A stretch of 64,000 bases of DNA. It comes from Cetorhinus maximus. Taxonomy: Eukaryota. The stretch spans positions 10,912,001 through 10,976,000 of the forward strand of contig NC_135901.1 in assembly GCF_964194155.1 (NCBI RefSeq). Direction: 5' to 3'. Below, one piece after another: positions 3,506 to 64,000 of this stretch. Every line of letters begins with the position of its first letter. The first letter of the stretch is position 1. The position numbers and the translations under genes were made by a program. Below the pieces are notes generated by a model, which had not been told where the DNA came from, did not search any database, and worked only from the letters and a program-made list of their open reading frames with translations.

Positions 3506-3529
3506 ATCGATTCTCAATGGCTGGGTGGT

Positions 3530-3960: not shown

Positions 3961-3964
3961 GTTG

Positions 3965-15971: not shown

Positions 15972-16530
15972 CAGGGAGGAGGGCGAGAGCAGAGGGCAAT
16001 AGAATCCCATCCCACAGGCCCCACATTTACATGGTTTTTCCCTGTTGTGGGTGTCCTTGAGTCTCACTGTGTTCAACAATCAGTTGAAGCCTCATATAAA
16101 AGGCCTCTCCCCGTTGTAAATGGTGCAATGCTTTGTCAGGCTGTGTAAGTAGCTGCAGCTCTTTCCAACGTCATTGCACTGGAACATTCTCACTTGGGTG
16201 TGTTTGTCTCGATGCTTTGCCAGTCACACTGATGTTAGAAATATTTGCAAACAGACAAATATTTCTCCTTCCACGTTCAATGGCCGACGACCATCTGGTC
16301 CTGATGAATCAATTAACTCTATCAAATGTTCATGGGATGTTTGATTTGATTTTCCCATCTGCAAGTCCTCCTTCTCCAATATGCTTGACAAGACGTTTAC
16401 TAAAGCCATTACAGTAAGTACACAATAGAAATTAGAAACTGATATTCCAGTTGACATAGAAAATCCTTTTCCCTCTCAAACTAGAATTCTCCTTCCCTGA
16501 AGGTGCTGATTCTCGGGTTCAGTTTCACAG
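15972..16530 (-). pseudogene. Truncated ZNF gene (leader, decayed fingers, start of first main finger) joined to Copia pol
   Basis: Minus strand ILEKEDLQMGKSNQTSH...DSSGPD..PLNVEGE, then KPCKCGACGMGF, then Copia sequence. Confidence 0.8.
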
Positions 16531-16739
16531 TCACGATTTGCCTCCCCAATATGTCACCCAGGTATCTAAATCTTTACGCCTAAAGTTAACTAACAGTTAT
16601 GTTCAAGCGATGTCAAAATCAAATCCAGTGACTTCTACATGTACTTTGTGACAGGGTGGGGTCATTGCGCCCCTCACTCCCACTTTTCATGCCAGTCCGA
16701 TGTGTTTGGAGACCGGGCTGTGGCTCAGTAATGGCAGCC

Positions 16740-17230
16740 ATAACTCCCACAAGCCCCCGCTTCAGGGAAACCGGTCTATCCACCGCGCAGGCGGGACGGC
16801 TCAGGAGTGCGCATGGGCAATGAAGAGAGGGGGTGCGCATGTGTGGAGAAGAGAGTTCACGTTGGCCAGCAATGGTGCGCGTCATGGGGTCAGTGTCTTC
16901 TTGCGGGGATTGACCAATGGGAAGAGTTGGAGGACCGGAAGGACTTTTGTCCTCCAGGCAATCAGAGCGCGGGCTTTGTGTCAACGAAGATTGAGTTTAA
17001 CACCGACGAAAACTTCCTCCTGTGCCCAATATCTGTGAGTAAAACTCTTTCTTTTCTCTCCCTTTCCATTACTTTTCTCATTCTGGGTTTAAATTGTTGA
17101 CTTGCAGGAACTGAAGGGAAAGGAAGTGAATCCAGTGAGGGTGCAGACTCTGGAAAGGTTGGCCTACTCTCTCTCTCTCTTAAAGACATTGACATCGTTT
17201 GCTCACTCATCTTGACACATTTATTTGTTT
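16740..17230. promoter_or_regulatory. CpG-rich, probably bidirectional promoter with first and second non-coding exons (cassette 1)
   Basis: CGCGCAGGCGG and two TGCGCATG, CCAAT ~16914; donor ATCT/GTGAGT at 17035; ~50-nt exon TTGCAG/GAACTG...GGAAAG/GT ~17108-17157; ZNF units diverge on both sides. Confidence 0.7.
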
Positions 17231-18340
17231 GGCTAGAAGGATGGCTGCTTTCCTAATGTTCACATTTAAATGGGTCGTTTTCCCAGGGAATGGCTGATAT
17301 TTAAGGGGACAGTAAATTAATATAGGACAGGCTTAAGTGGAGTGATGTTATATGGTACATATTAGACACATATTTATGGTTTTCCAATAAAGTACATTTA
17401 TTATTATTTCTAGTCTTGTAATATAGTACTGTAGCTATGTTATAGATTTTCAGACAGAGTCGTTATGACACAGAAGAAGTCCATTTGGCAACTAGAGTCC
17501 ATACCAACTCTGCAGAGGAATCCAGTCAGATCCACTCCTCCTTTATATCCTCCTCACCCTGCAAGTTTATTTCCTTCAAGTGCCCATCCAATTTTGAAAT
17601 AATTGATCATCTCTGCTTCCACCAACCCCATAGGCTATAGGCTGCCTAAATAAAGTTCTTCCTCACATCCTGCATGTATCTCTAATCAAGTAATACATTA
17701 CTGTATATTACATGCATCTTTAGTCCAAAAAATATATTATATGTATTAGAATCAGTGAGCATGGACCTGTCGATCAGCATGAATTATCACCTTCAGAAGA
17801 TTTGGGGCGGTGTATATTAAGTACAGCAGAGTGAGAATGGAGGGAGTGTGTGTGTGATGGAGATTTACAGCTTTTGGGGAATGAGAGAGGAAAGAATGTT
17901 TCATAGAAACTAGAATTGTTTGTTTTGAATTTCTAACCTGTACTGACTGATGATTTTTGTAAATTCCTTTCACAGGATATCTGGAGGTGAGGATTTGAAG
18001 ACTGAAATCTCAAAATAAACATCACGCCATAATCTGACAGAGTCACTCGATTCATCGGGATGTGGATGTCATTGGCATTTGAATCTAGAAGGAGAAATGT
18101 TTATCTGTTCTGTTTGTGGGAGAGGATTTCAAACATCAGTGTGACCGGGAAAGCACCAAAACACACACAACCTGAATGAGAGTGTTCCAGTGAACTGACT
18201 GTGGAAAGAGCTTTAACCAGTTACACAGCCTGAAAAAACATCACAGCATTCACATTGGGGAGAAACCGTAAATGTGTTCTGTTTGTAGATGAGTCTTCAA
18301 CTGATCGTTGAACCTGGAAAGACAGAAGGACACCCACACC

Positions 18341-18931
18341 ATGGAGAAAAGATGGAAGTGTCGGGGCTGTGGGAAGGGATTCCGTTGCCCATCTGATCTG
18401 GAAACTCATCGACGCAGTCACACTGGGGAGAGGCCATTCACCTGCTTCGTGTGTGGGGAGGGATTCAGCAAGTCATCCACTCTGCAGTCACACCAGCGAG
18501 TTCACACTGGGGAGAGGCCGTTCACCTGCTCCGAGTGTGGGAAGGGATTCACTCAGTCAACCAACCTGCTGACACACAAGCGAGTTCACACCAGGGAGAG
18601 GCCGTTCACTTGCTCTGAGTGTGGGAAAGGATTCACTCAGTCATCCAACCTGCAAACACACCAGCGAGTTCACACTGGGGAGAGGTCATTCATTTGCTCC
18701 AAGTGTGGGAAGGGATTCACCCAGTCATCCAACCTACTGACACATCAGCGAGTTCATACAGGGGAGAGGCCGTTCACCTGCTCTGTGTGTGGGAAGGGAT
18801 TTAATCGAATATCCAGCCTGCAGGAACACCAGCGCGTTCACACTGGGGAGAGGCCATTCATCTGCCCTGTATGTGGGAAGGCATTCACTTGGTCCTCCCT
18901 TCTCTTGAGACACCAGCGACTGCACCAGTGA
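18341..18931 (+). CDS. Tandem C2H2 zinc-finger protein, 7 fingers, 196 aa
   Basis: ACC-ATG-G start (MEKRWKC), 7 intact fingers, TGA; branch-point-like TACTGAC at 17941 and acceptor AG at 17975. Confidence 0.92.
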
Positions 18932-19129
18932 TTACAAGGGTTGATTCTGTTGTTATTGCTGCTGCGAATCACATCCAGGACTGAACCATGTTCATTCTTA
19001 CAGCTGGACTGGCCGGTCTCATGACCTTGCTTCCAGTGGACTGATGCACTTTGAGACTTGTTGCGAATATCCAGTTTCATCTTTCATTTGGATCACAGAA
19101 TGAAAGGGTGTTTGGAAGGAAAAAGAAAT

Positions 19130-19690
19130 TCAGTTTGCCTTCCATTTTCTCCCAAAGCATGCCTCATTGTCATGAGGGGAACATGATTCCCCTCATGTGA
19201 GGGGAAAAAGAAGCTGGAAGATTTGCCTAGTTTGAAGCTAGAGGAAGAAATCTCCAGTGGTCCTCACCGTGAAAGACAGTTGGCCCTGTGCCAGAGAGCA
19301 GTCAGCTTGGAAAGAGCTGTGAAGAAGCTGTGGGAGCTGACTGGGAAAAAGCAGTCCAAAGCCAGCTGAAGAAGGCAGTGGCATCCTCACAGAGAGAAAG
19401 AGCTCTGGATGTCTAAGTCCCAGACTGGGGAGAAATCAAAGTAAATTCCAGAGGGCTGTGGCATAACTTGGTTTGGCCCCAAAGAAAGTGAATGAAGCCT
19501 CAAGATTTCATAAGGTAAGGGAACCATTGGGGAGGGAGTGGTGCTTTCTTCATTTATTCGTTGAGATATATATACAATAAAGTTTGTTTTTGTGTAAAAG
19601 CATGAAATTTTGTGGTGTAGTTCTTTCAGTTAATCACTGGCTGTTTAGACTTATCTTTAAACATGAACAGTCCATACCGGGATTGTAACA
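19130..19690 (+). repeat. Probable LTR fragment
   Basis: AATAAA at ~19577, ends TTGTAACA at ~19690; 19570-19635 resembles 30925-30995. Confidence 0.4.
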
Positions 19691-19787
19691 TTCTAGTTTG
19701 TTGCCTGGTGAGAATAGTGACCAGAAATGGTCAGTGAGAATCTCCACAGAGAGCGAGGCAGCAGAAGCCAATCAGTGTCAGAAAGAG

Positions 19788-20030
19788 ATGCCAGCATTTA
19801 TTGTCCATCCTTAATTGCCCATGAGACGGTTGTGATGATCTTCCTTCTTCAACCGCTGCAGCCCACCTTGTCCAACTTATCTGTTGTGGTTTGGTGCAGC
19901 TGAGTTTCTTTCTCAGCCATTTCCGAGGAAGATTAAGAGTCAACCACATTGCTGTGGGTCCAGAGTCACACGTAGGCCAGACCAGGGAAGGACAGCAGAT
20001 TCCCTCCCTCCAGGGTATTGGTGAACCAGG
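19788..20030 (-). mobile_element. tRNA-derived SINE body and LINE-related tail
   Basis: Matches 50830-51000; tail GGGCAATTAAGGATGGACAATAAATGCTGG matches the LINE 3' end at 28950-28980. Confidence 0.6.
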
Positions 20031-20934
20031 TGTAAGAGAATTCCAAAGATTCACAAACCTTCTGAGTGAAAACATTTCTCCTCATCTCAGTCTGAAATGA
20101 TCGGCCCCTTATCCTGAGTCTGTGCTCCTGTGTTGTAGATTCTCCAGCTAGGAGGCAACAACCTCTCAATGTCTACCCTTCATACCCTGACACTGGCTGC
20201 ACATTGGCTCCGCCAATTGTCAATTGACCCTCTGGCATCAAAGTGAGGGAGCCACACTCATGATAAATAAATCGTGGCTGGTTGACCTTGGCAGGCTTCC
20301 TGCTGCCCCCAGTTGATGCCGCTAACCCCTCCCCTTGACACCAGGCTTCCTCCCAGCCGTGGGATCACCATGTGGAGCAGGAACACCGGCTTTGCTCCTT
20401 GTGGCACTGAAGCCCAGTCTGGTGCACACCTGCCCCCCCTCCCACCCAGACAGATACCAGGGACCTGACATTGACCTCCATGGGGCCTAAAGTCAGAAGC
20501 ATTTTCAAAGCAAATGCTGATGCTCCTTTAAATTGATGCATTTGTCACTGAAAGAAAAATCCAGTAAAAATCTAATTGTAATTTAGTACAGTGGCTATGT
20601 TATATATTTCCAGTTGGAGAGTTGTTACGTCACAAGAAATCCACTCAGTAACTTGGGTCCATGCCGACTCTCTGTAGAACAATCCAGTCAGTTCCATTCC
20701 CTCTCTCCATCCCCGTTCCCCTACAAGTTTATTTCCTTCAAATGCCCATCCAATTTCATTTTGAAATCATTTACTGTCTCTGCTTCCACCACCCTCGTAG
20801 GCAGCGAGTTCCAGGTCATGACCACACGCTGAAAATCCCCCCATATCTCTATCTTATTGAGTAGTGTATACGACACACATTTTTAGTTCAGTATATGCGT
20901 GTGTGTGTATATATATATATATATGATTTTTATC

Positions 20935-22570
20935 ACATTCCTCATACATGGTGAAGAATTCCTTCACCTTTGCAAAGACCATACAGGACTTGCACATCGA
21001 TCGCAATGCCATGTCCATGTGCTTGTTCAACATTGCGAGCCTATTCACTAATACACCGCTCAGGGAAGCCATAGAGATTTGCACCAAGTCACTATGTCAT
21101 GGCAATCTAACCCTCCACCATTGTCTGAATCTGCATTCATTGAACTTATGAACTCAGTAACTCGTGCAGTTGAGTTCTGATTTAATGACACCATGTCTGC
21201 CCAAATGGATAGTGTTGACATGAAATCCCCCCCCCAGGCCCAGCTATCATGAACATCTTTCTCAGTTTCCATGAGAAACACGTCTTTGATGGACTAACCC
21301 CTAACCTCCTACCCCTTGTGTATTCCCAAGACGTAGATGATATATTAGTTATATTTGAATCTGCAGCTGCATCTAAGGTTTTCCTTACATATCTTAATGG
21401 GTTCCAGCCGGTGCTCAAATTCCCCTTTGAAATGGAGCAGTCAAAGGAGCTCCCATTCCTCAATGTGGTGGTTGAGATACCTGCTAATGGGTTCTCTACT
21501 ACCGTCTACTGCATGCCTGCCTTCACTGGTTAATATATGTGTTGTGATTCCGACATTTCCACGCACTATAAGATTGGCCTAATCAGCAATCTCGTAAACA
21601 AGGCCCTGAGCCATTTGCTCACCATGCAAGCTTGATGCCAAATAGGCTGCATCAAAGCTATCCTGCGGGTTAATGGCTACCATGACCAGACCAGGGGTCG
21701 CTGTATAATCGCGCAAACTCATGAATGGGCCAAAGGCCTTGGGTCCTGAAAATGCCCAGTCTACCTCAGATTATCCTGGAAGCATAAGGTGTCTCAAAAA
21801 TTTAAGCAACACTGTTACTATGCAGTGGCAACATTAGTGATATTCTTCACTAACAGAATGCTGATGTGAAACCAAAAAGACATTCTGTCTACCACACAAA
21901 TGAGTAACGTGGTATATGAATTTCAGTGCTGGGGTTTTGTCAGGTATGTAGCTCGTATGTCTCAATGACTGGCGGATCATATCAAGCAGCACATCTTTTT
22001 GGCTGTTCGCAACAGGCAAAGTACTGACTGTAGTTAACCAGACAGAGCTTGCAAAACTCAGAACGTGGTGACTAACAGATATGATTCCGCAATTGGACAA
22101 CACTTACTAAACGATCCTGATTGTGCTAAGAATGAAACTAACAACCAATTTAAGATTATCAGTCAGACTCTCAGTGTGGCTCACCAAGATTCAAACACCA
22201 GGCCCCATTTTTTTCAAACAGAAAGAACATGTCCATTCATTGCACCTTTTTCAACTGAACAGAAGCTTTGGGGACAGCCATTCCCTTGTTCATTCCCCAA
22301 GGCAATGAATTGACCAATCAGAGTCAACTTGTCTGGTTTGAATTTTTAAGAAAAGCTTGGCAGTTACTGTTCCCTGGTGCATTCTCCATGGCGACAGCTC
22401 TACCAATCACAGTCCACTTGCCAACCAATCAGCACCCCTTTTTCATACCCGTTGTTCCCTTTGAGATTTGGTATTCTTGTGGATCTGTCCTGATGAGGGC
22501 AAGATGAAAAGCTTTGACATCATGTCTCTTTTCTCGGCAATACTAAAGTTCTGTACTAGCAAGTGACTAC
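20935..22570 (+). mobile_element. Penelope-like element: decayed RT, GIY-YIG endonuclease and terminal repeat with hammerhead motif
   Basis: FNIASLFTNTP (FDVxSLFTNVP), DVDDILVIF (YVDD), ELPFLNVVV, SNVVYEFQC...YVAR, SAIGQHLL; hammerhead core at 22486-22519. Confidence 0.88.
22486..22519 (+). ncRNA. Minimal type I hammerhead ribozyme motif (family A)
   Basis: UGUC CUGAUGA G-GGCAAGA-U GAAA AGCU UU GACA: stem I UGUC/GACA, core boxes present, palindromic AAGCUU stem III. Confidence 0.65.
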
Positions 22571-22597
22571 CTGTTGATATCATTAATGTAGTTAATA

Positions 22598-22735
22598 TGT
22601 TCCAAAGGAGAGTCAAATTGGACTCGAAACGTTAACTCTGTTCCCCTTTCCACAGATGCTGCCAACCTGCAGAGTTTTTCCAGCACTTTGTTTTTATTTC
22701 AGATCTCCAACATCTGCAGTATTTTGCTTTTATAT
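22598..22735 (+). mobile_element. Short hammerhead-bearing repeat (family B), first core box degenerate
   Basis: GTT CCAAAGGA GAGTC-AAATTG-GACTC GAAACGTT AAC followed by the family body. Confidence 0.65.
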
Positions 22736-23099
22736 TAATCTGACCCTTAAGCGATTTAGTTATGGCAGTTAATAACATTTATTCAAGTACAGTGCTTACT
22801 TTGTTAATTTGTTAATAAAGTGGTGTTAATTCATTGATATTTGTCTGGACTTAATTTCATTACCTTTTTTTTTACTGACTGGGGTCTCCCTCTCTCTCTC
22901 TGTGCCTTGTGTTTCCCTCAGCACACTAACTGGGCTATCCATCAAATCTTGGGACGTGCATGCTTCATACAAACAGTGAGACAGTGAGCAGGTTATTGCT
23001 GAGTAAGTGCTGCCTGATAGCATTGTTGATGAACCTTCCACTATTTTATGGCACAGTTCTAAAGAGTGAGCAGGGACAGAGGCTCCTGCGGGTCCATGT

Positions 23100-24230
23100 G
23101 CATTGATGGTGGAAATGGAAACAAGAAGTGATTTCAAAAGGAAACTGGATGGGCACTTGTGGGAAATAAACTCACAGGGCTACGGTGACAGAATGGGCAA
23201 TGGGACTGACTAGTTTGCCGTAGAGTCAGCACCATGGATTCGATGGGCCAAAAAGACCTCCTTCTCGGTCCTACTGAATCTGTGATCTAAAGAGCACAAT
23301 TTCAGCTGCTCCAGTCTCTCCAACTGACTGGAGTCCTTCATCCCCAGTGCCATTCAGATAAATCCTCTCTCCAGCCTCTCAGAGAGCTGCACATCTTTCC
23401 TAAAGAGTGGGGCCCGTATACGGGGTTCCGGTCTACAGAAATAGAATTGAAAAGCAGGGAGGTTATGTTGAGCTTGTCTAGAACCATGGTTAGACTACAC
23501 TGGGATTAATGTCAACATTAGTGATCTCCATTTATGAAAAGGAAATAGAAGCACTGGATAAGGGGCAACAAAGATTCGCAAGAATAATCCCAGAACTGAG
23601 CATTTAACCCTCAGGAAAGGAGGGGGCTGTTTTTCTCCAGAAAAGAGAAGACTGAAGGGTGACCTAATGGAAATCTTTAAGATTATGAAGGGGTTCAATA
23701 ATTCAACAGGGATTTCATGAGAAACCTCTTTACCCAGTGAGTGGTGAGGATGTGGAACTCACCACCACAGCGAGTGGTTGAGGTGAACAGCATGAATACA
23801 TTTAAGGGGAAGCTAGATACATATATGAGGGAGAAAGGAATAGAAGGATATGCTGATGGGGGGAGATGAAGAGGGGTGGGTGGAGGCTCATGTGGAGCAT
23901 AAATACTGACATAGAGCAATTGAACCAACTGGCCTGGCCCTGTGCTATAGACTCAATGGAACAGAAACAAATGTATTTATTTTAGATCTACCTGTAGTGG
24001 TAGGAAGAACACTATTTACTATCCAGGATAAAATAAATGTCCTTCATCAGCTTTTGTGGATTATTTCAGTGGAAATGTGCCCTCTCAGGCTCAAAGAGCG
24101 TCTGCCCACTGGAAGCAAAGTCATGAGACCGGCTAGTCCAGCAGAAAGAAACCCTCTGACCCTCCCACTTCACCAACTGTCAGAATGAACATGGTTCAGT
24201 CCTGGGTGTGATTAACAGCAGCAGAATCCA
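23100..24230 (-). repeat. ZNF 3' flank duplicated in inverted orientation at 36632-37780
   Basis: Near-identical non-coding translations at 23997-24188(+) and 36662-36853(-); the same mosaic of CR1 fragments in the same order. Confidence 0.85.
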
Positions 24231-24239
24231 ACTCCTGTC

Positions 24240-25165
24240 ATCACTTGTGAGCTCACTGGTGTCTCAGCAAGGTTGGATGACTGAGTGAATACCTTTCCAC
24301 ACTTGGAGCAGGTGAACAGTCTCTCCCTGGTGTGAACTCGGTGGTATGCCAGTACAGAGGATGAAACACCAAATCTCCTCCCACACGCAAGGCAGGTGAA
24401 TGGCCTTTCCCCGGTGTGAACTTGCTGGTGTCTCAGCAGGTGAGATGACTGAGTGAAGCCCATCCCACACACAGGTGAACAACATCTCCCCAGTGTGAAC
24501 CTGCTGGTGTGTCAGCAGATGGGATGCCTGAATGAATCCCTTCCTACAAAGGGAGCAGGTGAACAGCCTCACCCCAGTGTGAATTCGCTGGTGTGTCAGC
24601 AGGGTGGATGAATTACTGAATCTGTTCCCACACTCAGGGCAGGTGAACGGTCTCCCTCCTGTGTGAACTCACTGGCGTGTCAGCAGTTGGGACGAATCAC
24701 TGAACCCTTTCCCACACACAGAGCAGGTGAATGGCCTCTCCCCAGTGTCAATGTGATTCCAGTGCAGGTGGGGAAGGCAATCCCTTCCAACAGTCTATTC
24801 CATGGTTTCTCCATGGTGCGGTTGTCCTTGTGTCTCTCGAGGGTTGATGATCGGTTGAAGCCTCATCCACATACAGAACACGTGTACAGTTTCTCCCTGC
24901 TGTGAATGGTGTGATGTGTTTTCAGGCTATGTAACTGGTTAAAGGTCTTTCCACAGTCAGTGCATGGGAACACTCTCACTCGGGTGTGTAGTCACACTGA
25001 TGTTTAAAACCTTCTGATGCAGACAGACCAGAAAACAGTTTTCCTCCTAGATTCAAAACTGATGAAATTCATAGGCCAATGATATTCAGGTCCTGATGAA
25101 TCGAGTGATTCTGTCAGATGTTGACGTGACCTTTCATTTCAGATTTCTGTCTGCAATCTGTCCTG
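24240..25165 (-). pseudogene. C2H2 ZNF pseudogene (frameshifts, deletion in first main finger)
   Basis: Finger repeats split over frames (ORFs 24212-24472 and 24264-24572); leader module at 24820-25165; family 3'UTR motif at 24181-24235. Confidence 0.85.
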
Positions 25166-25529
25166 CAAAATGAGTTCGCAAAAGTCATCATTGTCAGCAT
25201 AGGATAGAAATTCAGAACAGACAATTTTAGATTCCATGGAAAACTTTTTCCTCTCTTATTCCCCAAAAGCTCTAAATCTCCACCTCACACACTCTCCATT
25301 CTCACTCTGCTGTGCCTGTTATACACCCTCCCAATTCTCCTGAAGATGGTGATTCATGCCGATAGATCCATGTCGACTGCTTCTTGTATTGGACCTTAAA
25401 ATTTTCATACAATGAAAAAAAGGTTCCACAAAATCACCAGCATTTCCCCCCTCAGCATATTTGGCACTAATTCCAGTTACAGATTCCCACAACTCTCTGT
25501 ACTTCCGAGGGAGGGTGAAGAAAGTGATT

Positions 25530-26260
25530 TACTCACAGATGTCGGTCAGAGGAGAAAGTTTTAGTGTTTGCGAAGCTAAAAAGAAATGTTGTTCTGTTTA
25601 AAATCAAACTACATGACTCGGAAGAAAATAAAGCGAAGACACTTCACAAATTCCCCTCCCCTCCCCTATTCCTGCAGCTGGCAACCCAGCGCTCAGGCGC
25701 AGAAAGCACTGCTGACCCGAGCTGCCCGGAGCAGGCGCAGTGCGGCTGCCGCCAGCGGTTACGCTCGATCTCTTTTTGGATCAGGCAGCCGCCGTAGACA
25801 GTGTGGGGGGGAAAGGTCAGTTCGCCGAGCGGCTTCTCAGTCTGTGCGGAGCCGTCAGCCGGTTACCTGGAAACCTTGTCTCGAGAAGGGGGAGGGGGGA
25901 CAAAGGGTGGGGGCAGGGCTCCCGTGTCCGCGCGCCTGGCCTGCAAGATTGGAACCCGAGGACGTCACCGCGGAGCAGAGTGATTCCCATTGGCTGGTAC
26001 AGGTAGGGTTCGATTGTGGACGTAACAATGCGGAAGTTGAACAATGAGCTTCAGGCTAAAACTTCTGTGCAACATCTGTGAGGAAATCAATGTATTTATT
26101 GTATGTCTATTTATTTTCTAATTCTGGTCTTAAATTGTTGACTTGCAGGAACTAAAAGGAAAAGAGTTAGTCCAGGGAGGGTGCAGTCTAGAAAGGTTGG
26201 CGCAATCTCTACTCTCAAAGACATTGACATCCTTTGCTCTCTCAGCTTGACACATTTATT
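25530..26260. promoter_or_regulatory. Bidirectional CpG-rich promoter with flanking non-coding exons (cassette 2)
   Basis: CAGGCGCA NRF1-like sites, X-box GTTACCTGGAAAC (25862), GACGTCAC (25961), ATTGG, CGGAAGT (26031); minus-strand donor (ACTCAC at 25531); paralogous to 33700-34350 and 63180-63935. Confidence 0.8.
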
Positions 26261-27460
26261 TGTCTGGCTAAAAGAATGGTCTCTTTCCTGATGTACAGAA
26301 TTAAAGGGATGGTTTCCCCAGAAGGCTGACATTTAAGAGGACATAGTAAGGTAGGACATGTCTTGTGTATAGATAGCGTACGTCTAGTGTCATATATTAC
26401 ATTCTAGATATTGTTGGTTCTCTAATAAAGTACATTATTTATTTCCAATTTTGTAATGTAGCACTGTATATGTCCAGCTATCGACTCATTATAGCATAGA
26501 AGGAGTCCATTTAAGGGACAGTAAATTAATATCAGACAGAGATATGTCTAGTGCTGTTATATGGTACATATTATTTATGATTCTCTAATTAGGTACATTC
26601 AGTTAATTTCTAGTCTTGTATTACAGAAATGTAGTTACATTATATATTTCCAATCACAGAGACATTACGGTACAAAAGGGTGTCCATTCAGCAACTCAAG
26701 TCCATGCCGACTCTCTGCAAAGCAATCCAATCAGTCCCATTTCCCCTCTATATCCCCGTTCCTCTGCAATTTTATTTCCTTCAAATCAATTTCATACATC
26801 CATCCAATTTCATTTTGAAATTATTGATCATCTTTTCTCCCAGTACCCTCTGCGGCAGTGAGTTGCTGTATGTCTGTGTTCGGGACAGGAAGCAGTGAGA
26901 ATGGACCTGCTGATCAGCATGAATTGGCACCTTCAGAAAAATTGGGAGGATGTTTATTAGGTCCAGCAGAGTGACAATGGAGGCAGGGTGTGTGGGACAG
27001 AAATTTACAACTCTTAGGGGAATGAGAGAAGAAAGAATGTTCCATTGGTTCTGAATTTCTATCCTGTACTGACTGATGGCTTTTGTAAACTTCTTTTACA
27101 GGATATTTGAAGGGGTGGAATTACGGATGGGAAACTCAAATGAAGCATCACGTTAAGATCTGATACAGCAACTTGATTCATCAAAATCTGAATATCATCA
27201 GTCTTTGATTCCATAAGAGAAAGGTTTGTCTGTTCTGTCTGCATCCATAATTTTTAAAAATTAGTATGACTGGAAAAGCACTGAGAGACACACACACACC
27301 CAAGTGAGAGTGTTCCAGTAAACTGACTGTGGAAAGAGCCTTAACCAGTTCCACAGCCTGTTTGCACCATTTACACTGGGGAGAGACCATATACATGTTT
27401 TGTGTGTGGACGAGGCTTCAGCTGACAGTCAAACTAGAGAGAAACAAGGACACTTGCATC

Positions 27461-28051
27461 ATGGAGAAACCGTGGAAATGTGTGGACTGTGTGAAGGCAT
27501 TCAGATCTCCATCTTTGCTGGAGATTCATCGACGCACACACACTGGGGAGAGGCCGTTCACCTGCTCTGAGTGTGGGAAGGGATTCAGCGATTCATCCAA
27601 TCTGCTGGCACACCAGCGGGTTCACACTGGGGAGAGGCCGTTCACCTGCTGTGTGTGTGGGAATGGATTCAGTCAACTATCCAACCTGTTGCGACATCAG
27701 CGAGTTCACACTGGGGAGAGGCCATTCACCTGCTCCCAGTGTAGGAAGGGATTCACTCGGTTATCCAGCCTGCAGACGCACCAGCGAGTTCACACTGGGG
27801 AGAGGCCATTCACCTGCTCCATCTGTGGGCAGGGATTCAGTGATTCATCCACCCTGCGGCAGCACCAACAACTGCACAGTGGGGAGAGGCCGTTCACCTG
27901 CTCTGAGTGTGGGATGGGATTCACTCAGTTATCCAGGCTGCTCAGACACCAGCCAGTTCATACTGGGGAGAGACCGTTCACCTGCTCCGTGTGTGGGAAG
28001 GGGTTCACTCGGTTATCCAGCATGCTCAGACACCAGCGAGTTCACAAGTGA
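27461..28051 (+). CDS. Tandem C2H2 zinc-finger protein, 7 fingers, 196 aa
   Basis: ATC-ATG-G start (MEKPWKC), 7 intact fingers; acceptor TTTTACAG ending at 27101. Confidence 0.92.
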   Translation: MEKPWKCVDCVKAFRSPSLLEIHRRTHTGERPFTCSECGKGFSDSSNLLAHQRVHTGERPFTCCVCGNGFSQLSNLLRHQRVHTGERPFTCSQCRKGFTRLSSLQTHQRVHTGERPFTCSICGQGFSDSSTLRQHQQLHSGERPFTCSECGMGFTQLSRLLRHQPVHTGERPFTCSVCGKGFTRLSSMLRHQRVHK

Positions 28052-28087
28052 TCACAGTCATTGGATTCTGTTGTTATTCACATCCAG

Positions 28088-28700
28088 TGGAAAGGTAGAC
28101 TGTATGAGAATGAAGATAGCTCTAACTATTGTGGAAAGGATAGTAGAAATTAAAAATAAAGATACTCCCCAGTGTGGTAAAGAGATTGTGTAGAGGATGG
28201 AAATGAGTCAAAAAGACTGATATGTTTTCACAGTCATAGAGTTGGACATTTGATATCAGATTATTGGAGATTAAAAAGTAAACCAGTGGCATTGGTAAAA
28301 GTGGCTGGTGTTTCTCCAGAGAAAGTTGCACCAAAAGGGGAAGCTTGTGAGAAATCAATACCTTCTAATGTATTTACCATGGGTGAAAATAGAGATTTGA
28401 GGGATTATGAAGGATTTATGTTTGAAGAGGAAGTCACTCCATTTTTGTCCAAGAAAGAACCTGGAAAGATTGTTATCCTTAGAGACACTGGCTCATCTCA
28501 GAGCTTATTGTTAACAAAAGATTTAGACTTTTCTTCAAGATGTTCACTGAACAAAAATGTATTGGTTCGGGGTGTTGATGGGGAGTGTGTGCCTATCCCA
28601 TTGTGTAAAGTCAGTTTAAACTATGCTTTCATAGAAGGTCTGTTATTGTTGGTGTTATTGATTATGTATGTAGATTTTATATTGGGGAATGATATAGGCT
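28088..28700 (+). mobile_element. Gypsy-type LTR retrotransposon fragment: gag zinc knuckle plus aspartic protease
   Basis: CFHSHRVGHLISDYW (decayed CX2CX4HX4C, from 28222), ILRDTGSSQSLL (catalytic DTG), FILGND; probably continues at 29020-29600. Confidence 0.8.
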
Positions 28701-29019
28701 CCTCTGACAGCACCTTCCAAACCCACGACCACTACCATTTAGAAGGACAAGGTCAGCAGACACATGGGAACACCACCACCTGGAAGTTCCCCTCCAAGTC
28801 ACCACCATCCTGACTTGGAAATATATCGCCGTTCCTTCACTGTCGCTGGGTCAAAATCCTGGAACTTCCTTCCTAACAGCACTGTGGGTGTACCTACACC
28901 ACATGGACTGCAGCAGTTCAAGAAGGCAGCTCACCACCACCTTCTCAAGGGCAACTAGGGATGGGCAATAAATGCTGGCCCAGCCAGCGAAGCCCACATC
29001 CCATGAATAAAAAAAAAAA
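28700..29019 (+). mobile_element. 3' end of a non-LTR retrotransposon with AATAAA and poly(A) tail
   Basis: SFTVAGSKSWNFLPNSTVG...LQQFKKAAHHHL C-terminus, AATAAA, A-tail at ~29009-29019; related pieces at 5565-5700 and 58970-59180 (minus). Confidence 0.8.
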
Positions 29020-29599
29020 TAATAGGTGATATTGTTTTTCCACTTTCTGGGACCGTGTTCACAGTTCAGAAGATGTTCCTGTGAGTAAAAAAAAAACCCT
29101 AGCCTATTCGTGACCCGGTTAAGCTACAAACTGATACAAAATAAAGATAGTGATGTGTCCACCCTAGTCACGGACAGTGCAGAGTCAGGAAAAGTGCCTG
29201 AAACATCTCAAGATAAAAGCCCACTTCAGAAGGAACTAAGATCTCAAAGATACCCTAAAGGGTTAATGACACCGAACACTGAATTATATGTAGCTGCCTG
29301 TGCTGAGACAGAACAAGATATAACAGCAGCAGGAGTTCAGGCAAAGGGACAGTTCACAGAAAAAACACTTCAAACTCCAAAATGATTGGAATGAAATAGT
29401 TTGTGAGTGACGTGGGAGACTCAAAATGTTTGAAAAAAGAATTGAAAGTCCAGAATGAAGAAGCTGTCAACATCACTGGAAAAAAATTAAATTAAGCTCG
29501 ATCTGAATGAGATTAGGTGAACCGAAAGGATAATAAATTGTTCAAAGACCAGACCACACAGGAGTATCAAACACTTTTGCTTGAACATAAAAAGCATTT

Positions 29600-30626
29600 T
29601 GTGATGAGAGATGTATATTTTTGTGATGATGTTTTCTGTGTAGAAAGCTGTGGGTGTGTGTGGAAGGTTAATTAAGCAAGGGGGAGGTTACTAGAGAAAG
29701 GTTGTCTGAGGTCTAAGAGATGAAAGGTTAAAGGTGTTAGGTTTGTGCATGTGGTGCAGAGGTTATGGTGGGTTTGAGTTACAAGTAAATAGGTTGGTTC
29801 TGAAATTTGCGTTGTGATATCAGTGGGAAATGGGTTTTTCAGCTTTGAATTTCAAAAAGGGAGTTCAGAAGTAACAGGGGACATTTACATCTAACAGGGA
29901 TTCCATGAGTAAATAGGGGAAGGCATATTAAATTTTATTGACCCAAAAGTAGAGGCAAAACAGAAAACATGAAATATTTTTATATTTGGAGAAGTTGAAT
30001 TTCAAAGAGGTGTTTCAGGACAATGGAACCTGAGATGAAAGGGGAAAAAGATATTTAAGGAAAGGGGTGTTTAACTGTTGAGGGTTGCTGTGGGGGAACC
30101 CACTGAGGTTCAGCTTCTCTGTGTGTGAGCGGCTGAGAAACTGTAAAAGTTTAGAATTGGAGGGAGCCACCCAGTGTTAAGCCAGAAGTCTTTGTTTTAG
30201 GAAACAGTTTATTTCTGAACCTCCTTTTGGAATTCCATATCAGAGTGGAAGTGCCTGAGAATCCGTGAGGTACACCTTTGGTAAAGTGAGAATAATTCCT
30301 TGACATGGGTAATGTTTACTGGGTTTTTATGGTCAAAATCTGTCAGGGGTTGCTGCCAAAAAGGTAGTGCAGTTGTCTACTTTTGACAAAGCATGTTTTT
30401 GAGGGTTGTTCTGGAAGGCTGTTTTAACTTTTATCTTGTGTGCTTAAGCTTTCCTTTTTAATAAATCCTTTAATTAAAAAAATTCTAAAGCTATGACTGG
30501 AGTTCTGTGCTTTTGAGGTCAGTTGCTCTTCCTCCTTGTTTTCGCAAAAAAAGTTTATTATCAGCAAGACAGACTTCACTCAGGAGTCTGGCTTGCTCAG
30601 CAATAACATCAGCTGTGGTCATAACA
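29600..30626 (+). repeat. Probable ~1 kb solo LTR
   Basis: TGTGATGA...TCATAACA termini, AATAAA ~30460, T-rich flanks on both sides; similar end TGTGTCATAACA at 62752-62763. Confidence 0.5.
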
Positions 30627-31019
30627 TTTTGAGTGACATTCTTAAAATGGCGAAAGAAGATTTTTTACCAGTGACCTACACAGCAGATTAGCTTGGAAGC
30701 ATTGGAAAAATAACAAGGAACTGAGCAGCCACAATCAAGAGATGATAAATGAAAGTTTAACCTCTGAGAATAGCTGGAACTGAGGAGAATTCTCCAGAGC
30801 ACTGTGACATACTTGATGTGCCTTATGAGAGAATCATGGGGAAACTAAGATGTAAACCTGAGGGCACAACATATGTAGTTATAAACCATATTAAGTTATT
30901 AGTACTTGCTTTGTTTAGTTCTTTTATGTACAATAAAGTTTGTTTTGGTAAAAAAAACAAGTGAAATCTTGTTGTGTAGCTTTATTGGTTAAAACAAGGT
31001 GTTTGGCTTTCTTTTGAGA

Positions 31020-31471
31020 GTAGTGACAATGCCAAGACCGTACCTTGTTTCCTCCTTGGTTGAGACGTAATCTGTGTCCACTTCATTCTTCCACTGGTCG
31101 TATGGCTCAGACTCCGAGAGCATTCGTGGGTAATCAGACCCTAACAATTTCCACTTGCTTTCAGCCATTTCTCACAAAAGATGCTAGGATTGTAGGACTC
31201 TGTGTGAAATCTTATTTTCCTTGAGTTTCAAACCTTCACCATTAGACAAACATTCTCTGTTAACATATTATAGTACTGACAGCCTTATGGTAAAAGAAGA
31301 AACTGCAGCCAATCTTTACTTGGTATAGATTTATTCACAGAGTGAAACATTACAGGTATAGGCCTCCTGACTCCACTCTATGTCAGTAAGTGTCTCTTAT
31401 ATGGGCTTATGTAACCATCCAATCAATGCCCTTCACCTGTAGATACTTAACCTCAATTGATACAATTAACA
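31020..31471 (-). mobile_element. 5' end of a second Copia (GalEa-like) element: 214-bp LTR, PBS remnant, gag N-terminus
   Basis: LTR 31258-31471 with TGTTAA...TTAACA and minus-strand AATAAA; then GAGAATGTTT (resembles the distal part of the iMet PBS TGGTAGCAGAGGATGGTT); then MAESKWK..SDYP...EPYDQWKNEVD...KQGTVLALSL. Confidence 0.65.
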
Positions 31472-32686
31472 CCAACGGTCAGAGCATCTAAAAGGCTCTA
31501 ATTGGTGTGACTGCCATGGTGTCTCAGCAGCTCGGATGAATGAGTGAATTCCTTCCCACAAACTGAGCAGGTGAACAAATCTCTCCATTGTGAACTCGCT
31601 GGTGCCTCAGCAGGTTGGATGAATCACTGAATCCTTTCCCACGCACGGAGCAGGTGAACGGCTTCTCTCCACTGTGAACTCGCTGATGTCTCTGCAGGTT
31701 GGATGAATCGCCGAATCCCTTCCCACAGTCAGAACAGGTGAACGGCTTCTCCCTGGTGTGAACTCGCTGATGTCTCAGTAAATCATGTGACATTCTAAAG
31801 GTCTTTGTGCAGTGACAGCAGCTGAACAGTCTCTCCTCAGTGTGAATTCCTACCTGATGGTCCACCAGCACATAATGTGTAAAGCAGTTCCCACAGTCAG
31901 AGCATTGAACAGGTTTCTCATTGGTCTGAGTACCTTGGTGCCCCAGCGGACTGGGCTGACTGAATCCCTTCCCACACATGGAGCTGGTGAATCGCCTCTG
32001 CCTGGTGAGAATACGTTGGTGTGTAAGCAGGAGGGATGAGTGAGTGAATCCCTTCCCACACTCAGAGCAGGTGAACAGCCCCTCACCAGTGTGAAATCGC
32101 TCATGCTTCCGCAGGGCAGATGACCGTGTGAATCCCTTCCCACACTCAGAGCAGGTGAATGGTCTCTCCCCAGTGTGAACTCGCTGATGTCTCTGCACGG
32201 TGGATGAATCAATGAATCCCTTTCCACACACGGAGCAGATGAACGGCCTCTCCCCGCTGTGGCTGCGGTGATGAGTTTCCAGTTCACAGCGGGGCACGGA
32301 ATCCCTTCCCATAGTCCCCACATTTCCATGGTTTCTCCATGGTGTGGGGGTCCTTGTGTCTCTCCAAGTTCTACAGTCAGTTGAAGCCTCATCCACACAC
32401 ACAACACGTGTCTGGTTTTTCCCTGCTGTGAATGTTTTTCAGCTCTGTAACTGGTTAAAGCTCCTTTCATAGTCAGTGCAGTGGCACACATTCACGAGGG
32501 TGTGTGCATCTCAGTGCTTTTCAAGTTAGATTAATGTTTAAAACCTTTTGAAACAGGCAGACATTTCTCCTTCTAAATTCATAGGCTGATGTCATTCACG
32601 TCCCAATGCGTTGGGTAACTTTGTCAAATCTTGACGTGATGTTTGGTTTGATATTTCTGTCTGTAAATCCTCCTCTTCTAATATCC
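31472..32686 (-). pseudogene. C2H2 ZNF pseudogene (~11 fingers, frameshift in finger 1, several broken fingers, 3' end cut by the LTR)
   Basis: ATG at 32340 gives MEKPWKCGDYGKGFRAPL*; the array continues in another frame (ORF 31524-32402) with lost Cys/His residues. Confidence 0.85.
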
Positions 32687-33699
32687 TGTAAAAGGAGTTT
32701 ACAAAAGTGATCACTGTCAGTAAAGGATAGAAATTCAGAATAGACAATTCTAATTTCTATGGAACATTCTTTCCTCCCTCAATCCCCAAAAGCTGTAAAC
32801 CTCAGTCCCACACTCTCCCACTATCCTCACTCTGCTGTACCGAAAACACACCCTCCCAATTCTCCTGAAGGTTCTGATTCATGCTGATCGACAAATCCAT
32901 GCTCACTGCTTCCTGTACTGGACACAGAGACCTGAAAATCTTCATGCAGGCTGTCAGCCTAATATAAATATGTTTATGTTACTAGACTAAAAATGAATAT
33001 AATGTACAGTCCCGTATCACTTGGTTAGATGTGGAGGGGGCAATGTGCGGAAAAGCTCCATTTATGCAGTGAGTGGTCATGACCTGGTGGAAGTGAAGAC
33101 AATCAATGATTCAAAATGAAATTGGATGTGCACTTGAAAAAATGAACTTGCCGGGGAACCAAGATATAAAAGGGGAATGGGGCTGACTGGATTGCTATAC
33201 AGGGAGTCGGCATGGACTTGAGTTGTCAAATAGAATCCTTCTGTGCCGCAATGACTATGTGACTGGAAATATATAATGTAGCTACAGTACTATATTAGAA
33301 GATTAAAAATAACAAAATGTGTTATAGAACCATAAATATTATACCTAATATGTAACATATAACAACACTAGACATATCTTTGTTGTTATGATTCCCATGG
33401 AGACCGATAACCTTAAAATAAACACATTCCCAGACAAACCCAATGGAATAAACCGAAGGACAAGGTTTCACTTTTTAAATTTTTACTGTAACAATCAAAC
33501 TAAAATCAACACAAATGAAACATGCATTAACAGACAAACAGGATTTGAACAGACAGGATAAATTTGACTTTAAACAGTTTATACAATAAAAAACAGGTTC
33601 CACAAAATCACCAGCATTTCCCCCCTCAGCATATTTGGCACTAATTCCAGTTACAGATTCCCACAACTCTCTGTATTTCCCAGGGGGGAAATAAAGTGT

Positions 33700-34350
33700 T
33701 TTACTCACAGATGTTGGACAGAGGAGGAAGGTTTAGTGTCTGTGTGAAGTTAATAACAAACGCTGTGCTGTTTAAAATCAAACTCAGAAATAAATGAAGG
33801 GAAGACATTTTGTAAACTCCCCCCCAGTGCGCAGACGCAGACGCAGAAAGCGCTGCTGACCCGAGCTGTCCGGAGCAGGCGCAGTGCGGCTGCCGCCAGC
33901 GGTCACTCTCGATCTATTTTTGGACCCAGCCAACCGCCGTAGACAGTGGGGGGAGGGAGAATTCGCCGTGCGGCTTCTCGTTCTGGCCGGGGCCGTCAGC
34001 TGGTTACCCGGAAACCTTGGCTCGAGGAGGTGCAGGGGGAGCGGGAACAATGGGTAGGGGTGGGACTCCCGTGTCTGCGCGCCTGGCCTGCAGACTGCAA
34101 CCCGAAGACGTCACCGCGGGGCAGAGTGATTCCCATTGGCTGATTCAGGCAAGGTTCCATGGTGGACGTCACAATGCGTCGTTGGACAATGAGCTTCGGA
34201 CTAAAACGTCCTCCTCTGGGTAACATCTGTGGGGAAATCAATGTTTCCTCATTTCTATTTATTTTCTAATTCTGGGCTTAAATTGTTGAATTGCAGGAAT
34301 TGAGGGAAGGAGGTGAATCCAGGCAGGGTGGAGACTCTAGAAAGGTTGCC
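33700..34350. promoter_or_regulatory. Bidirectional CpG-rich promoter with flanking non-coding exons (cassette 3)
   Basis: TGCGCAGACGCA (33828), GAGCAGGCGCA, X-box GTTACCCGGAAAC (34003), GACGTCAC twice, ATTGG; minus-strand donor at ~33703. Confidence 0.8.
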
Positions 34351-34434
34351 CCAGGACTCAGTAAAAAGGGTGGTTTGTCCAGGTAATGGCTGGTATTTAA
34401 CGTGACAGTACAGTAATATGAGAAAATGCTGAGC

Positions 34435-34852
34435 TGGTTAAACCTTAACTCAATGGAGTTCAGAAGAATGAGAGGTGATTTTATTGAAACAAATAGGATC
34501 CTGAGGCTGTTTGACAGGGTAGATGCTTGGAGAATGCTTCACCTCGCAGGGGATTCTAGAATTAGGGGTCACAGTATAAAAATAAGTGTTCTCTCATTTA
34601 AGGTGGGGAGGAATTTCTTCTCTCAGGGGGCATTACTCTTTGGAATTCTCTTCCACAGGGAGTACTGCAGGCTGGGTCATTGAACACATTCAAAGCTGAG
34701 TTGGACACATTTTTGATCGACAAGGGAGTCAGCATTATGGGGACAGGCAGGAATGTGCAGTTAAGGCCACATCAGATCAAGTAGGATCTTATTGAATGGT
34801 GGAGCAGGCTTGATGGGATGAATGGCCTTCTCCTTATCCATTTCTTATAATC
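34435..34852 (+). mobile_element. CR1 3' fragment in a ZNF intron
   Basis: EFRRMRGDFIETNRILR...RIRGHS motif plus CR1 3'UTR. Confidence 0.8.
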
Positions 34853-35435
34853 TCTCCAGGAAAGGAAGCAGTGAGCATGGATCTGTTCAGGAGAATTGCG
34901 ACGGTGAATATTTGGCACAGCAGAATGAGAATGGAGCGATTGTGTGTGGGATAGAGATTTACAGGTGTGAGGGAACAAGAGATGAAAGAATGTGCCGTAG
35001 TAACGAGAATTGCCTGTTCTGAATTTCTCACCTTTACTGACAGTGATGACTTTTCTAAACTCCTTTTACAGGATATTAGAAGGGGAGGATTTGTAGTCAG
35101 AAATCTCAAACCAAACATCACGTCAAGATCTGACGGAGTCACTCAATTCATCGGGACCTGAATATCATCAGCCTTTGAATCTAATGGAGAAATGTTTGTC
35201 TGTTCTGATTGCTTCATAAGGTCTTAAAGTTCAATGTGACTGGAAAAGCATCAAGATGCACACGCCCACGTGAGAGTGTTCTCGTGCACTGACTGTGGAA
35301 ACAATATTAACCATTTACACAGCTTGACAAAAACATCAGACCATTCACAGCATGGAGAGACTGTACACGTGTTCTGTTTGTGGATGAGTCCTCAACTGAT
35401 CGTCGAACCTGGAGAGTCACAAGGACACCCACACC

Positions 35436-36026
35436 ATGGAGAAACGGTGGAAATGTGGGGACTGTGGGAAGGGATTCCAGTCCCCTTCTGCACTCGAAAT
35501 TCATCGACGCATTCACACCGGGGAGAGGCCATTCACGTGCTTTCTGTGTGGGAAGGGATTCGCTCGGTCATCCAACCTGCTGACACACCAGCGAGTTCAC
35601 ACAGGGGAGAGGACATTCACTTGCTCTGTGTGTGGGAAGGGATTCACTCGGTCATCCAACCTGCTGACACACCAGCGAGTTCACACCGGGGAGAGGCCAT
35701 TCACCTGCTCTGAGTGTGGGAAGGGATTCGCTCATTTTTCCGCCCTGCAGACACACCAGCGAATCCACACTGGGGAGAGGCCATTCACCTGCTCTGTGTG
35801 TGGGAAAGGATTCACTCAGTTATCTAGCCTGCTGAGACACCAGCGAGTTCACACTGAGGAGAGACCATTCACCTGCTCTGCTTGTGGGAAGGAGTTCAGT
35901 AATTCATACAACTTGTTGACACACCAGCGAGTTCACACTGGGGAGAGGCCGTTCACGTGTTCTGACTGTGGGAAAGGATTCACTCAGTTAGCCAACCTGT
36001 TGAGACACCAGCGAGTTCACAAGTGA
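35436..36026 (+). CDS. Tandem C2H2 zinc-finger protein, 7 fingers, 196 aa
   Basis: ACC-ATG-G start (MEKRWKC), 7 intact fingers; acceptor TTTTACAG ending at 35071. Confidence 0.93.
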
Positions 36027-51122: not shown

Positions 51123-51135
51123 CTCCCCGAGCCCC

Positions 51136-62564: not shown

Positions 62565-63179
62565 ATGTATTTAATTTCTTGTTAAATTAATAAACATTTA
62601 TGTTAGTTTAGATTAAAAAAAACCTTTTGAGACTGCGGTTTTATTTCTTAATTCAGAGCTGCATCTCAAAACATACCAATTGAAAATATAGGTTATGACA
62701 TTTGTTCAAGTTTCTATCTGGGATTTAAACAACTCAGCCTTTACCAACTGCTGTGTCATAACATCGCTGCAGTACTACATTACACGACTAGAAATAATAA
62801 TAAATGTACTTTATTACAGAAGCATAAATAATATATCTAATTTGTACAATATTACACCACTAGACATATCTATGTTGTTACAATCCCCTTAAAAGAAACA
62901 AATTCCCAGACAATCCTCAACGGAATAAATCGAAGGACAAGGTTAACTTTTAAAACTTATACTGTAACAATCAAACTAAAATCAACAAAAATGAAGCATG
63001 CATTAAAAGACAAATATTATTTGAATAGATAGGATAAATTTGACTTTAAACAGTTTATACAATAAAAAACAGGCTCCACAAAATCACCAGCATTTCCCCC
63101 CTCAGCATATTTGGCACTAATTCCAGTTACAGATTCCCGCAACTCTCTGTACTTCCCAGGGGAAGGAAAGAAAGTGATT

Positions 63180-63935
63180 TACTCACAGATGTTGGACAGA
63201 GGAGGAAGGTTAAGTGTCTGTGTGAAGTTAATAACAAACGCTGTGCTGTTTAAAACCAAACTCTGGAGAAAATGAGGGGAAGATGCATAGTAAACTCCCC
63301 TCCCCCACTCCCTCAGCTGGCAGCCCAGCGCGCAGGCGCAGAAAGCGCTGCTGACCGTGTTGTCCGGAGCAGGCGCAGTGCGGCTGCCACGAGCAGCCGC
63401 TCTCAGTAGCTTTTTGTTTTTATCTTTCCACCGATGCTGCCAGACCTGCTGAGTTTTTCCAGGTAATTCTGTTTTTGTTCTCGATCTCCTTTTGGGCCGC
63501 CGTAGACAGCAGCCATGGCCGTGGGGGTTCGCTCCGCGGCTTCTCGCTCTGGCCGGAGCCGCCAGCCGGTTGCCTGGAAACCTTGGCTCGAGAAGGTGCA
63601 GGAGGAAGGGGAACAATGGGTGGGGGTGGGGGTGGGGGTGGGGGTGGGGCTCTCGTGTCCGCGCGCCTGGCCTGCCCTGCCGCCTGGAACCCCAGCACGT
63701 CACCGCGGAGCAGAGTGATTCCTAATTGGCTGATTCAGGCAGGGTTCCATTGTGGACATCACAATGCGGAAGTTGGACAATGAGCTTCAGACTGAAACTT
63801 CCTCCTCTGGGCAACATCTGTGAGGAAATCAGTGTTTCTCCCTTTCTAATCTAATTCTGGTCTTAAATTGTTGACTTGCAGGAACTGAAGGAAATGAAGT
63901 TAATCCCGGGAGGGTGCAGACTCTGGAAAGGTTGC
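63180..63935. promoter_or_regulatory. Bidirectional-type CpG-rich promoter (cassette 4); right-hand gene presumably beyond the window, left-hand exon absent
   Basis: CGCGCAGGCGCA (~63329), X-box GTTGCCTGGAAAC (63569), CACGTCAC, ATTGG, CGGAAGT; colinear with 33385-34410. Confidence 0.8.
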
Positions 63936-64000
63936 CCCAGTTCTCTCAATGAAAGGGGTGGTTTGCCCAGTAGTTGGCCGGTATTTAATGAGACAGTACA

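Follow-up and report, generated by a model that had tools for sequence, protein, structure and literature searches.

The 64-kb window analysed here, by which we mean the whole stretch of Cetorhinus maximus DNA (C24:10912001-10976000, on a contig of 65 Mb in a genome of 3.99 Gb), lies within a shark-specific cluster of several hundred finger-only C2H2 zinc finger (ZNF) genes, which occupies approximately the first 31 Mb of that one chromosome-scale contig and in which the genes often stand back-to-back. This head-to-head layout is real and reaches well beyond the window. Each pair shares a CpG island of 0.5-0.7 kb composed of two half-promoters, which occur in several combinations, and a block of approximately 370 bp, comprising promoter and 5' exons, is only 4-6% divergent between genes that are 21-25% divergent elsewhere. 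The best explanation as a whole, to which we assign a probability of about 0.6, is that the open promoter acts as a focus of non-allelic recombination and gene conversion, which would most likely have homogenised this block and would also have swapped arms and half-promoters across old paralogs, with some purifying selection acting on top.

Divergent gene pairs on shared CpG islands

A six-frame scan revealed C2H2 arrays alternating across the window. The original prediction, made from the sequence of the window, had described four CpG-rich promoter blocks near 16.9, 25.8, 33.9 and 63.5 kb, and their composition bore this out (GC 0.55-0.58; CpG observed/expected 0.62-0.83). Colinearity was found for the blocks at 25.8, 33.9 and 63.5 kb, here called type A, which were 84-86% identical. 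It did not extend to the 16.9 kb core, here called type B, which had been regarded as a diverged copy: this core gave no BLAST match to the other cores, aligned at 61-66% when a global alignment was forced, and shared only its right arm with them. The motif ending exon 1 was recovered at seven places, three of them minus-strand (near 25537, 33709 and 63187) and four plus-strand (near 17034, 26077, 34228 and 63819), and the intron block said to recur in inverted orientation did so (26536-26842 at 33383-33088, 75%; 26536-26620 at 62875-62781, 77%). Outward ZNF units on both sides were present as C2H2 arrays at 25.8 and 33.9 kb, but the three left arms (16.0 kb, 24814(-) and 32340(-)) were all broken, while the three right arms all held intact open reading frames (ORFs) of 196 amino acids (aa) with 7 fingers. 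The left arm at 63.5 kb has lost its ZNF exon, and the right arm there runs beyond the window to an intact 364-aa, 13-finger ORF. The features are as follows, in window coordinates.

15972..16437, minus strand: remnant family unit with a decayed acceptor and dead fingers; no ATG, intact finger or exon-1 motif
16600..17034, plus strand: type-B CpG promoter and predicted short non-coding exon 1, donor after 17034
17035..17260, plus strand: homogenised 5' block with 73-nt intron 1, 50-nt exon 2 (17108-17157) and the start of intron 2
17976..18340, plus strand: untranslated start of the last exon, consisting of an old linker followed by three dead fingers, with stops common to the family
18341..18931, plus strand: intact finger-only ORF, 196 aa, 7 C2H2 fingers
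24190..25162, minus strand: left-arm last exon of the 25.8 kb cassette, in which a frameshift limits the frame from the ATG at 24814 to 44 aa, with no in-frame finger
25388..25537, minus strand: left-type exon-1 donor (after 25537) and start of the left-type intron, unrelated to right-type intron 1
25538..26077, no strand: type-A CpG promoter core with two outward exon-1 donors 540 bp apart; non-palindromic
26078..26195, plus strand: right-arm intron 1 and exon 2 (26149-26195)
27102..28051, plus strand: right-arm last exon; intact ORF 27461-28051, 196 aa, 7 fingers
31470..32686, minus strand: left-arm last exon of the 33.9 kb cassette, in which the frame from the ATG at 32340 shifts after 18 aa, leaving later fingers out of frame
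33260..33709, minus strand: left-type exon-1 donor (after 33709), start of the left-type intron, shared intron block
33710..34228, no strand: type-A CpG promoter core, 519 bp between donors
34229..34344, plus strand: right-arm intron 1 and exon 2 (34297-34344)
35072..36026, plus strand: right-arm last exon; intact ORF 35436-36026, 196 aa, 7 fingers
62758..64000, no strand: third type-A promoter; donors after 63187 (minus) and 63819 (plus)

Genome-wide, promoter copies were flanked by head-to-head paralogs recurring across approximately 31 Mb, as anticipated. The matches of three fully listed promoter searches (36, 50 and 11) were all located either on C24, from 0.3 to 31.3 Mb, or on small scaffolds; the copies are thus confined to the cluster and not scattered in the manner of a transposon. 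Exact copies of the start motif numbered 838, with 97 of the first 100 listed on C24, and those of a 24-mer at the exon-2 donor 392, with the first 100 listed all on C24, both counts including pseudogenes and probably haplotig scaffolds; 12/16 matches of a finger motif lay on C24. Three off-cluster copies (L113, L114 and L115, on C11, C22 and C1) were lone last exons, with no type-A or type-B promoter within 9 kb and no exon 2 nearby.

Pairing was general in this set. Outward exon-1 motifs on both sides were found at 20/20 type-A loci, which represent about 8 independent lineages, and divergent arrays within 4.5 kb at 18/20. Family sequence pointed outward on both sides at 47 of 57 promoters and, in unselected contiguous stretches, at 12/17. 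Neighbouring arrays formed 13 divergent, 12 convergent and 8 tandem pairs, placing 25/33 on opposite strands (p=0.002), with a median gap of 3.3 kb between divergent arrays; the same pairing was seen in a third stretch. Intact arms made up 11/25 of the left type and 39/62 of the right type. An apparent all-plus 'tandem domain' at 27.0-27.7 Mb was rejected as an artefact of match listing.

The exon-1 donors of type-A promoters lie 519-632 bp apart on the CpG island, the exons being predicted from sequence and catshark models. Half-promoters were of four kinds (A-left, A-right, B-left and B-right) and, in 20 type-B loci together with the type-A set, were joined in at least four combinations, namely A-left+A-right (the one in the window), A-left+B-right, A-right+B-right and B-left+B-right. 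The left arm of B-left+B-right promoters was usually a remnant; occasional B/B promoters were truly mirrored (L069, 697 bp at 82%). Some type-A promoters (L070, L071) carried a type-B exon-1 end and intron 1, the switch lying inside the shared motif. At L063:4920-6360, a minisatellite of approximately 1.4 kb (21-27 bp unit) has grown inside the promoter core, and both ORFs there are still intact.

Using transcription-factor (TF) consensus sequences, three NRF1-like sites and a CCAAT box were recognised in the type-B promoter (16600..17034), and two cyclic AMP response element (CRE)-like sites, a CCAAT box (minus strand) and an ETS-like site in the type-A core at 33710..34228. NRF1-like sites exceeded shuffles in the type-B core (3 sites; 0 of 200 shuffles). 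In two type-A cores the same held for CRE-like sites (1 and 7 of 200). The ZNF143-associated motif ACTACA..TCCC was absent from all 4 window cores. NRF-1, GABPA, YY1 and NF-Y are among the motifs of human bidirectional promoters in the accessible text of PMC3082894. The island would be expected to fire both ways via NF-Y, NRF1-like, CRE-like and ETS-like sites.

The promoters had also been described as quasi-palindromic, with mirrored arms. The cores between the exon-1 ends scored like shuffles in self-reverse-complement comparison (101, 86 and 85 of 200 as high), and shuffles were beaten when the exon-1 ends were included (1, 1 and 0 of 200 as high). Mirroring held for 34-54 bp, about 41 bp overall, at the exon-1 ends (80-88%) and failed further out, where left and right first introns were unrelated and the 50-nt exon 2 was present on right arms only. 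The arms would most likely mirror each other because of conversion and recombination at the promoter and not because of a palindromic core.

Finger-only reading frames behind a dead leader

A right-type arm is predicted to consist of a short non-coding exon 1, a 73-nt intron, the 50-nt exon 2 and one large last exon, and a left-type arm would likewise begin with a short non-coding exon 1 and end with a large last exon. The predicted splice junctions are indirectly supported by automatic catshark models: P0121 joins the exon-1 end straight to the last exon at the predicted junction, and P0119 with four relatives contains a translated type-B promoter, exon 2 (19/21 residues) and the leader. A further automatic model, Chiloscyllium P0147, matched the type-A core (E 5.5e-5).

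The last exon is a tandem C2H2 array with TGERP-type linkers, and its first 363 nt, the leader, comprise an old linker and three dead fingers. Analysis of 55 non-redundant genes (of 93) revealed leader stops at codon -70 in 37/53, at -66 in 46/54 and at -13 in 47/54 genes, followed by an ATG that was kept in 50/55 genes in a strong start context; an upstream ATG was present at codon -81 in 29/51. Stops per 100 codons amounted to 2.22 before the ATG vs 0.49 after it, and stops and gaps together were 4-5x commoner before. The -66 stop is old, because Pristiophorus and Heterodontus models end at the same position; in some models from catshark and zebra shark, the reading frame continues across a leader that is shorter. 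Finger 1 begins at residue 7 and the frame upstream is closed. Reading from the ATG in unselected units, 17/32 gave arrays of 4-23 fingers, after which the tail had a median length of 1 residue. At the level of sequence, ancient stops close the leader and translation would start from a Met in the former linker, so that the predicted proteins are finger-only, beginning inside the old linker behind three dead fingers. The DNA-contact residues of the fingers appear to diversify: a naive count, which by itself does not demonstrate positive selection, gave pN/pS (nonsynonymous to synonymous differences) of 0.97 at contact vs 0.20 at framework positions, against an intron baseline of 0.83.

The absence of KRAB, SCAN and BTB domains, noted originally, was confirmed with Pfam. 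None was found in the 3 intact window ORFs, which gave zinc-finger-type matches only, in the full listing at E 1e-5 for 13 proteins, or among the top 5 families listed for each of 41 further stop-to-stop frames (out of 180 listed). There was no open frame upstream of the fingers to hold a FiNZ-type domain, the single open case (1/55) being mis-anchored. Stop read-through at shared TGA codons was rejected, as the region also has a shared TAA codon, scattered stops and indels at 4-5x the downstream rate. An extra coding mini-exon approximately 230 nt before the last acceptor was rejected as well, its splice sites and ATG often being lost. The leader with its upstream ATGs might, as a speculation, limit output; tandem-finger translation stalls ribosomes in zebrafish according to the accessible text of PMC11620358. 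One unit (L092, C24 ~29.031-29.034 Mb) has two dead-finger leaders in tandem, followed by a 735-aa ORF that encodes 23 fingers.

The highest-identity named homologs of the ORF at 35436 were shark and ray proteins (65-72%). A profile search with the non-finger leader returned 42 proteins; 20 were looked up and the 15 that were named all came from sharks, which agrees with the proposed lineage-specific tandem-ZNF expansion. Two homologs possibly from the same genome were excluded from the cross-species evidence. Word-index protein searches with the leader returned nothing or the query alone, Pfam on the leader alignment gave no credible match, and the exon-2 motif had 0 matches in a metagenome scan.

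Origin of the uniform 5' block and of the paired arms

Divergence changes abruptly along the gene. Among 11 unselected type-B arms, pairwise divergence was 0.065 at the exon-1 end, 0.058 in intron 1, 0.037 in exon 2 and 0.052 in the first 100 nt of intron 2, then 0.26 beyond; it was 0.21-0.25 in the last-exon leader and in dead and live fingers (9 of the 11). Some old pairs were 1.2% apart in the block vs 21% in the leader, while in 9 independent recent pairs block (49/1396 sites, 3.5%) and leader (169/4305, 3.9%) did not differ (p=0.52). Median block distance from the consensus was 0.023 for broken or absent ORFs (n=16) vs 0.036 for intact ones (n=23), half of the loci in this comparison having been chosen by promoter similarity; the unselected subset pointed the same way, with ~0.03 for 6 broken or absent ORFs, one of them at the edge of a stretch, vs 0.042 for 11 intact ones. 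The leader showed 0.136 vs 0.113 (p=0.007). That the block is kept alike whether or not the ORF is intact favours gene conversion. We consider it probable, judging from these sequence comparisons, that gene conversion with some selection keeps the block alike.

Several observations weigh against the best explanation as a whole, in addition to the choice of loci just mentioned. Exon 2 matches catshark at 19/21 residues and other shark orders have recognisable forms of both promoter types, which points to selection; the likeness to catshark at the protein level also leans against a drifting consensus. Relaxed selection in young duplicates could also yield equal divergence of block and leader. 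The shared-variant signal was modest: block transversions common to at least 2 other families made up 12/38 (background 0.10), and leader transversions 33/105 (background 0.22). Type-A blocks were homogenised only near the start site, and over a longer span type-A old-pair ratios were 0.6-1.0, some type-B arms being mislabelled A there. Both ORFs were intact at only 13/57 promoters (3/17 in the unselected stretches; 0/3 in the finding itself), so two-way coding output is often vestigial. Most motif counts, including those of CCAAT, ETS and GC-box, were not above shuffles. Finally, no splice joint was seen among the 15 listed of 1009 joints from four unstranded contig sets, whose RNA nature is a guess; promoters and intergenic DNA alike are covered, at ~90-94%, by contigs from two related organisms.

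A rival reading is an ordinary birth-and-death cluster in which purifying selection holds the promoter and the stretch from exon 1 through intron 1 to exon 2 (on TF sites, splicing, or a partner gene or non-coding RNA) with little conversion. We regard this as rather unlikely, though deserving serious weight: Scyliorhinus and Chiloscyllium models contain recognisable versions of exon 2 and of both promoter types, exon 2 changes least at second codon positions (0.041, 0.019, 0.061), and the block boundaries coincide with regulatory DNA. Against it, conservation continues through intron 1 and 100 nt of intron 2, does not weaken where the ORF is dead and is not seen between recent duplicates, and 11/38 exon-2 copies show length changes. 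A structured RNA in the block was rejected, since there was no Rfam match and the block folded worse than shuffles (z +1.83), which likewise speaks against selection on an RNA. The alternative that the block is a transposable element or mobile module inserted before older ZNF exons would explain why it looks much younger than the exons downstream, with sharp edges, and why the exon-2 24-mer occurs in so many exact copies (392). It is nonetheless very improbable, as every listed promoter match and each of the first 100 listed exon-2 matches lie as given above (the former on the cluster contig or small scaffolds, the latter on the cluster contig), a family exon nearly always follows the block, the three off-cluster ZNF copies are without it, and it is present in other shark orders.

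The original prediction had proposed that a single gene underwent inverted duplication about a palindromic promoter and that the two-gene cassette was then amplified as a unit. That all arms are paralogs in inverted orientation accords with this, as do the truly mirrored B/B promoters elsewhere in the cluster (L069) and the co-variation of left and right distances over 16 cassettes (Mantel rho 0.48, p=0.0002). We nevertheless judge it improbable. The core retains no palindromic residue, and left and right bodies do not form two clades: in a tree of 63 leaders (of 79 arms, the rest lacking a full leader or a type), which was star-like with ~20% divergence, left arms needed 6 changes and were one-sided in 0% of 200 bootstrap trees. 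After removal of near-identical copies (38/62 kept), distances were 0.212 left-right, 0.210 left-left and 0.213 right-right (between-minus-within -0.001, p=0.49). One long-branch row was left out of these distances. The mirrored half of the large inverted duplication described below was excluded from the counts of neighbouring arrays, promoter flanks and finger ORFs and from the consensus comparison, and L067/L068 were set aside too. The co-variation shows that arms co-duplicate in recent events and stems from recent near-copies; one cassette has swapped partners, its left arms being 6% and its right arms 19% apart. Since the tree is star-like it has little power at its base, and might fail to resolve an inverted-duplication origin very close to the radiation.

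The recent duplication unit is also of another order of size. From ~19 kb onwards (19193-64000) the window is one arm of an inverted duplication of more than 100 kb that is 94-99% identical. As this unit is far larger than two genes, and half-promoters occur in several combinations, the sequences at hand do not support clonal descent from one fold-back event or the clonal amplification of an inverted pair of genes. Copies have recently been gained through duplication of large segments, in part inverted, and many of the units are pseudogenes. The inverted duplication (also L031-L048; C24 ~10.93-11.15 Mb) has its highest identity near a central 200-N gap (~C24:11,040,100), and may be a real palindrome or a mis-joined haplotype.

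Comparison with known systems and further features of the window

Tetrapod KRAB-ZNF genes have small 5' exons and one large finger exon that opens with a linker, and the shark genes also have small 5' exons and a large finger exon. They differ in having no KRAB, SCAN or BTB match and apparently non-coding 5' exons, and in that their most homogeneous part is the promoter block and not the coding region. Birth-and-death evolution is common to both, and short conversion tracts among paralogs are reported for the tetrapod genes, as judged from the accessible text of PMC2604467 and PMC11603059. Cyprinid FiNZ-ZNF genes (zebrafish Chr 4q) resemble the shark family, as far as the main text of PMC10547256 goes, in that a single chromosome arm holds hundreds of young C2H2 genes in tandem, which duplicate rapidly and vary in their DNA-contact residues; unlike them, the shark genes lack a translatable N-terminal accessory domain and form head-to-head pairs on shared promoters. 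Vertebrate bidirectional CpG promoters likewise have divergent genes less than 1 kb apart on a CpG island, and the NRF1-like, CCAAT and ETS-like sites of the shark cores are among the motifs listed in the consulted part of PMC3082894. In the shark case, by contrast, both partners are paralogs whose halves appear to have been exchanged among many copies.

The ingredients are each known: ZNF clusters specific to a lineage, CpG promoters that are bidirectional, and paralogs that undergo conversion (the last from the accessible text of PMC2604467). The automatic models named 'zinc finger protein 239-like / XlCGF-like' in sharks belong to the same family, sharing leader, start motif and stop (Heterodontus, Scyliorhinus, Pristiophorus, Chiloscyllium, Carcharodon, Mustelus and Stegostoma); these are automatic names only. 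A literature search that most subscription papers lay outside found no account of the shark family, whether of its paired layout, its leader of dead fingers or its homogenised block. The words 'shark', 'bidirectional' and 'head-to-head' are absent from the main text of PMC10547256, and a term search of the main texts of PMC10547256, PMC11603059, PMC8455134 and 10.1101/2025.03.13.642935 found no mention of the layout, the supplements, which may hold shark ZNF counts, being outside its scope.

Zinc-finger number tracks transposon load across animals, as stated in the accessible text of PMC10547256, and by analogy with that work repeat targeting is the likeliest role: the proteins would bind repeat or transposon DNA and, having no effector domain, might act by occupancy or through a separate partner. 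Tentatively, and at somewhat less than an even chance, we picture sharks, in which KRAB families are lost, as running a chromosome-arm-sized repertoire of effector-less finger proteins. The promoter would be both two-way switch and recombination hub, conversion holding hundreds of genes on one program and reshuffling arms and half-promoters while the fingers diversify, and the fossil three-finger leader would predate the divergence of the major shark lineages. The shared homogenised 5' block makes it testable how ZNF genes act without a KRAB-like domain, in cartilaginous fishes that are barely covered so far, as hundreds of genes could be detected or knocked down at once. The family would show regulation and DNA specificity evolving under opposite regimes within one gene. 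A further implication concerns automatic shark gene models, in many of which promoter or leader DNA has been translated into a spurious N-terminus.

CpG islands belonging to different promoter classes were also found in the window at 3450-3960, 51000-51550 and 54500-55000, with family units near them at 8.1 kb (+), 47-48 kb (-) and 55.7-57 kb (+). The 3.5 kb class matches the N-termini of Pristiophorus and Heterodontus models, and the 54.7 kb class that of a Carcharodon model. A GC-rich unit of ~55 bp is repeated three times at 51136-51293, within the 51 kb island, and a perfect 69-bp inverted repeat lies at 49814-49882 / 50098-50166, with ~215 bp between its arms. Two stranded copies of the last-exon acceptor and leader, with no finger array, are located at 3945-4625. 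The segment 28696-29010 showed very high contig depth in all four runs, which fits a high-copy short interspersed repeat.

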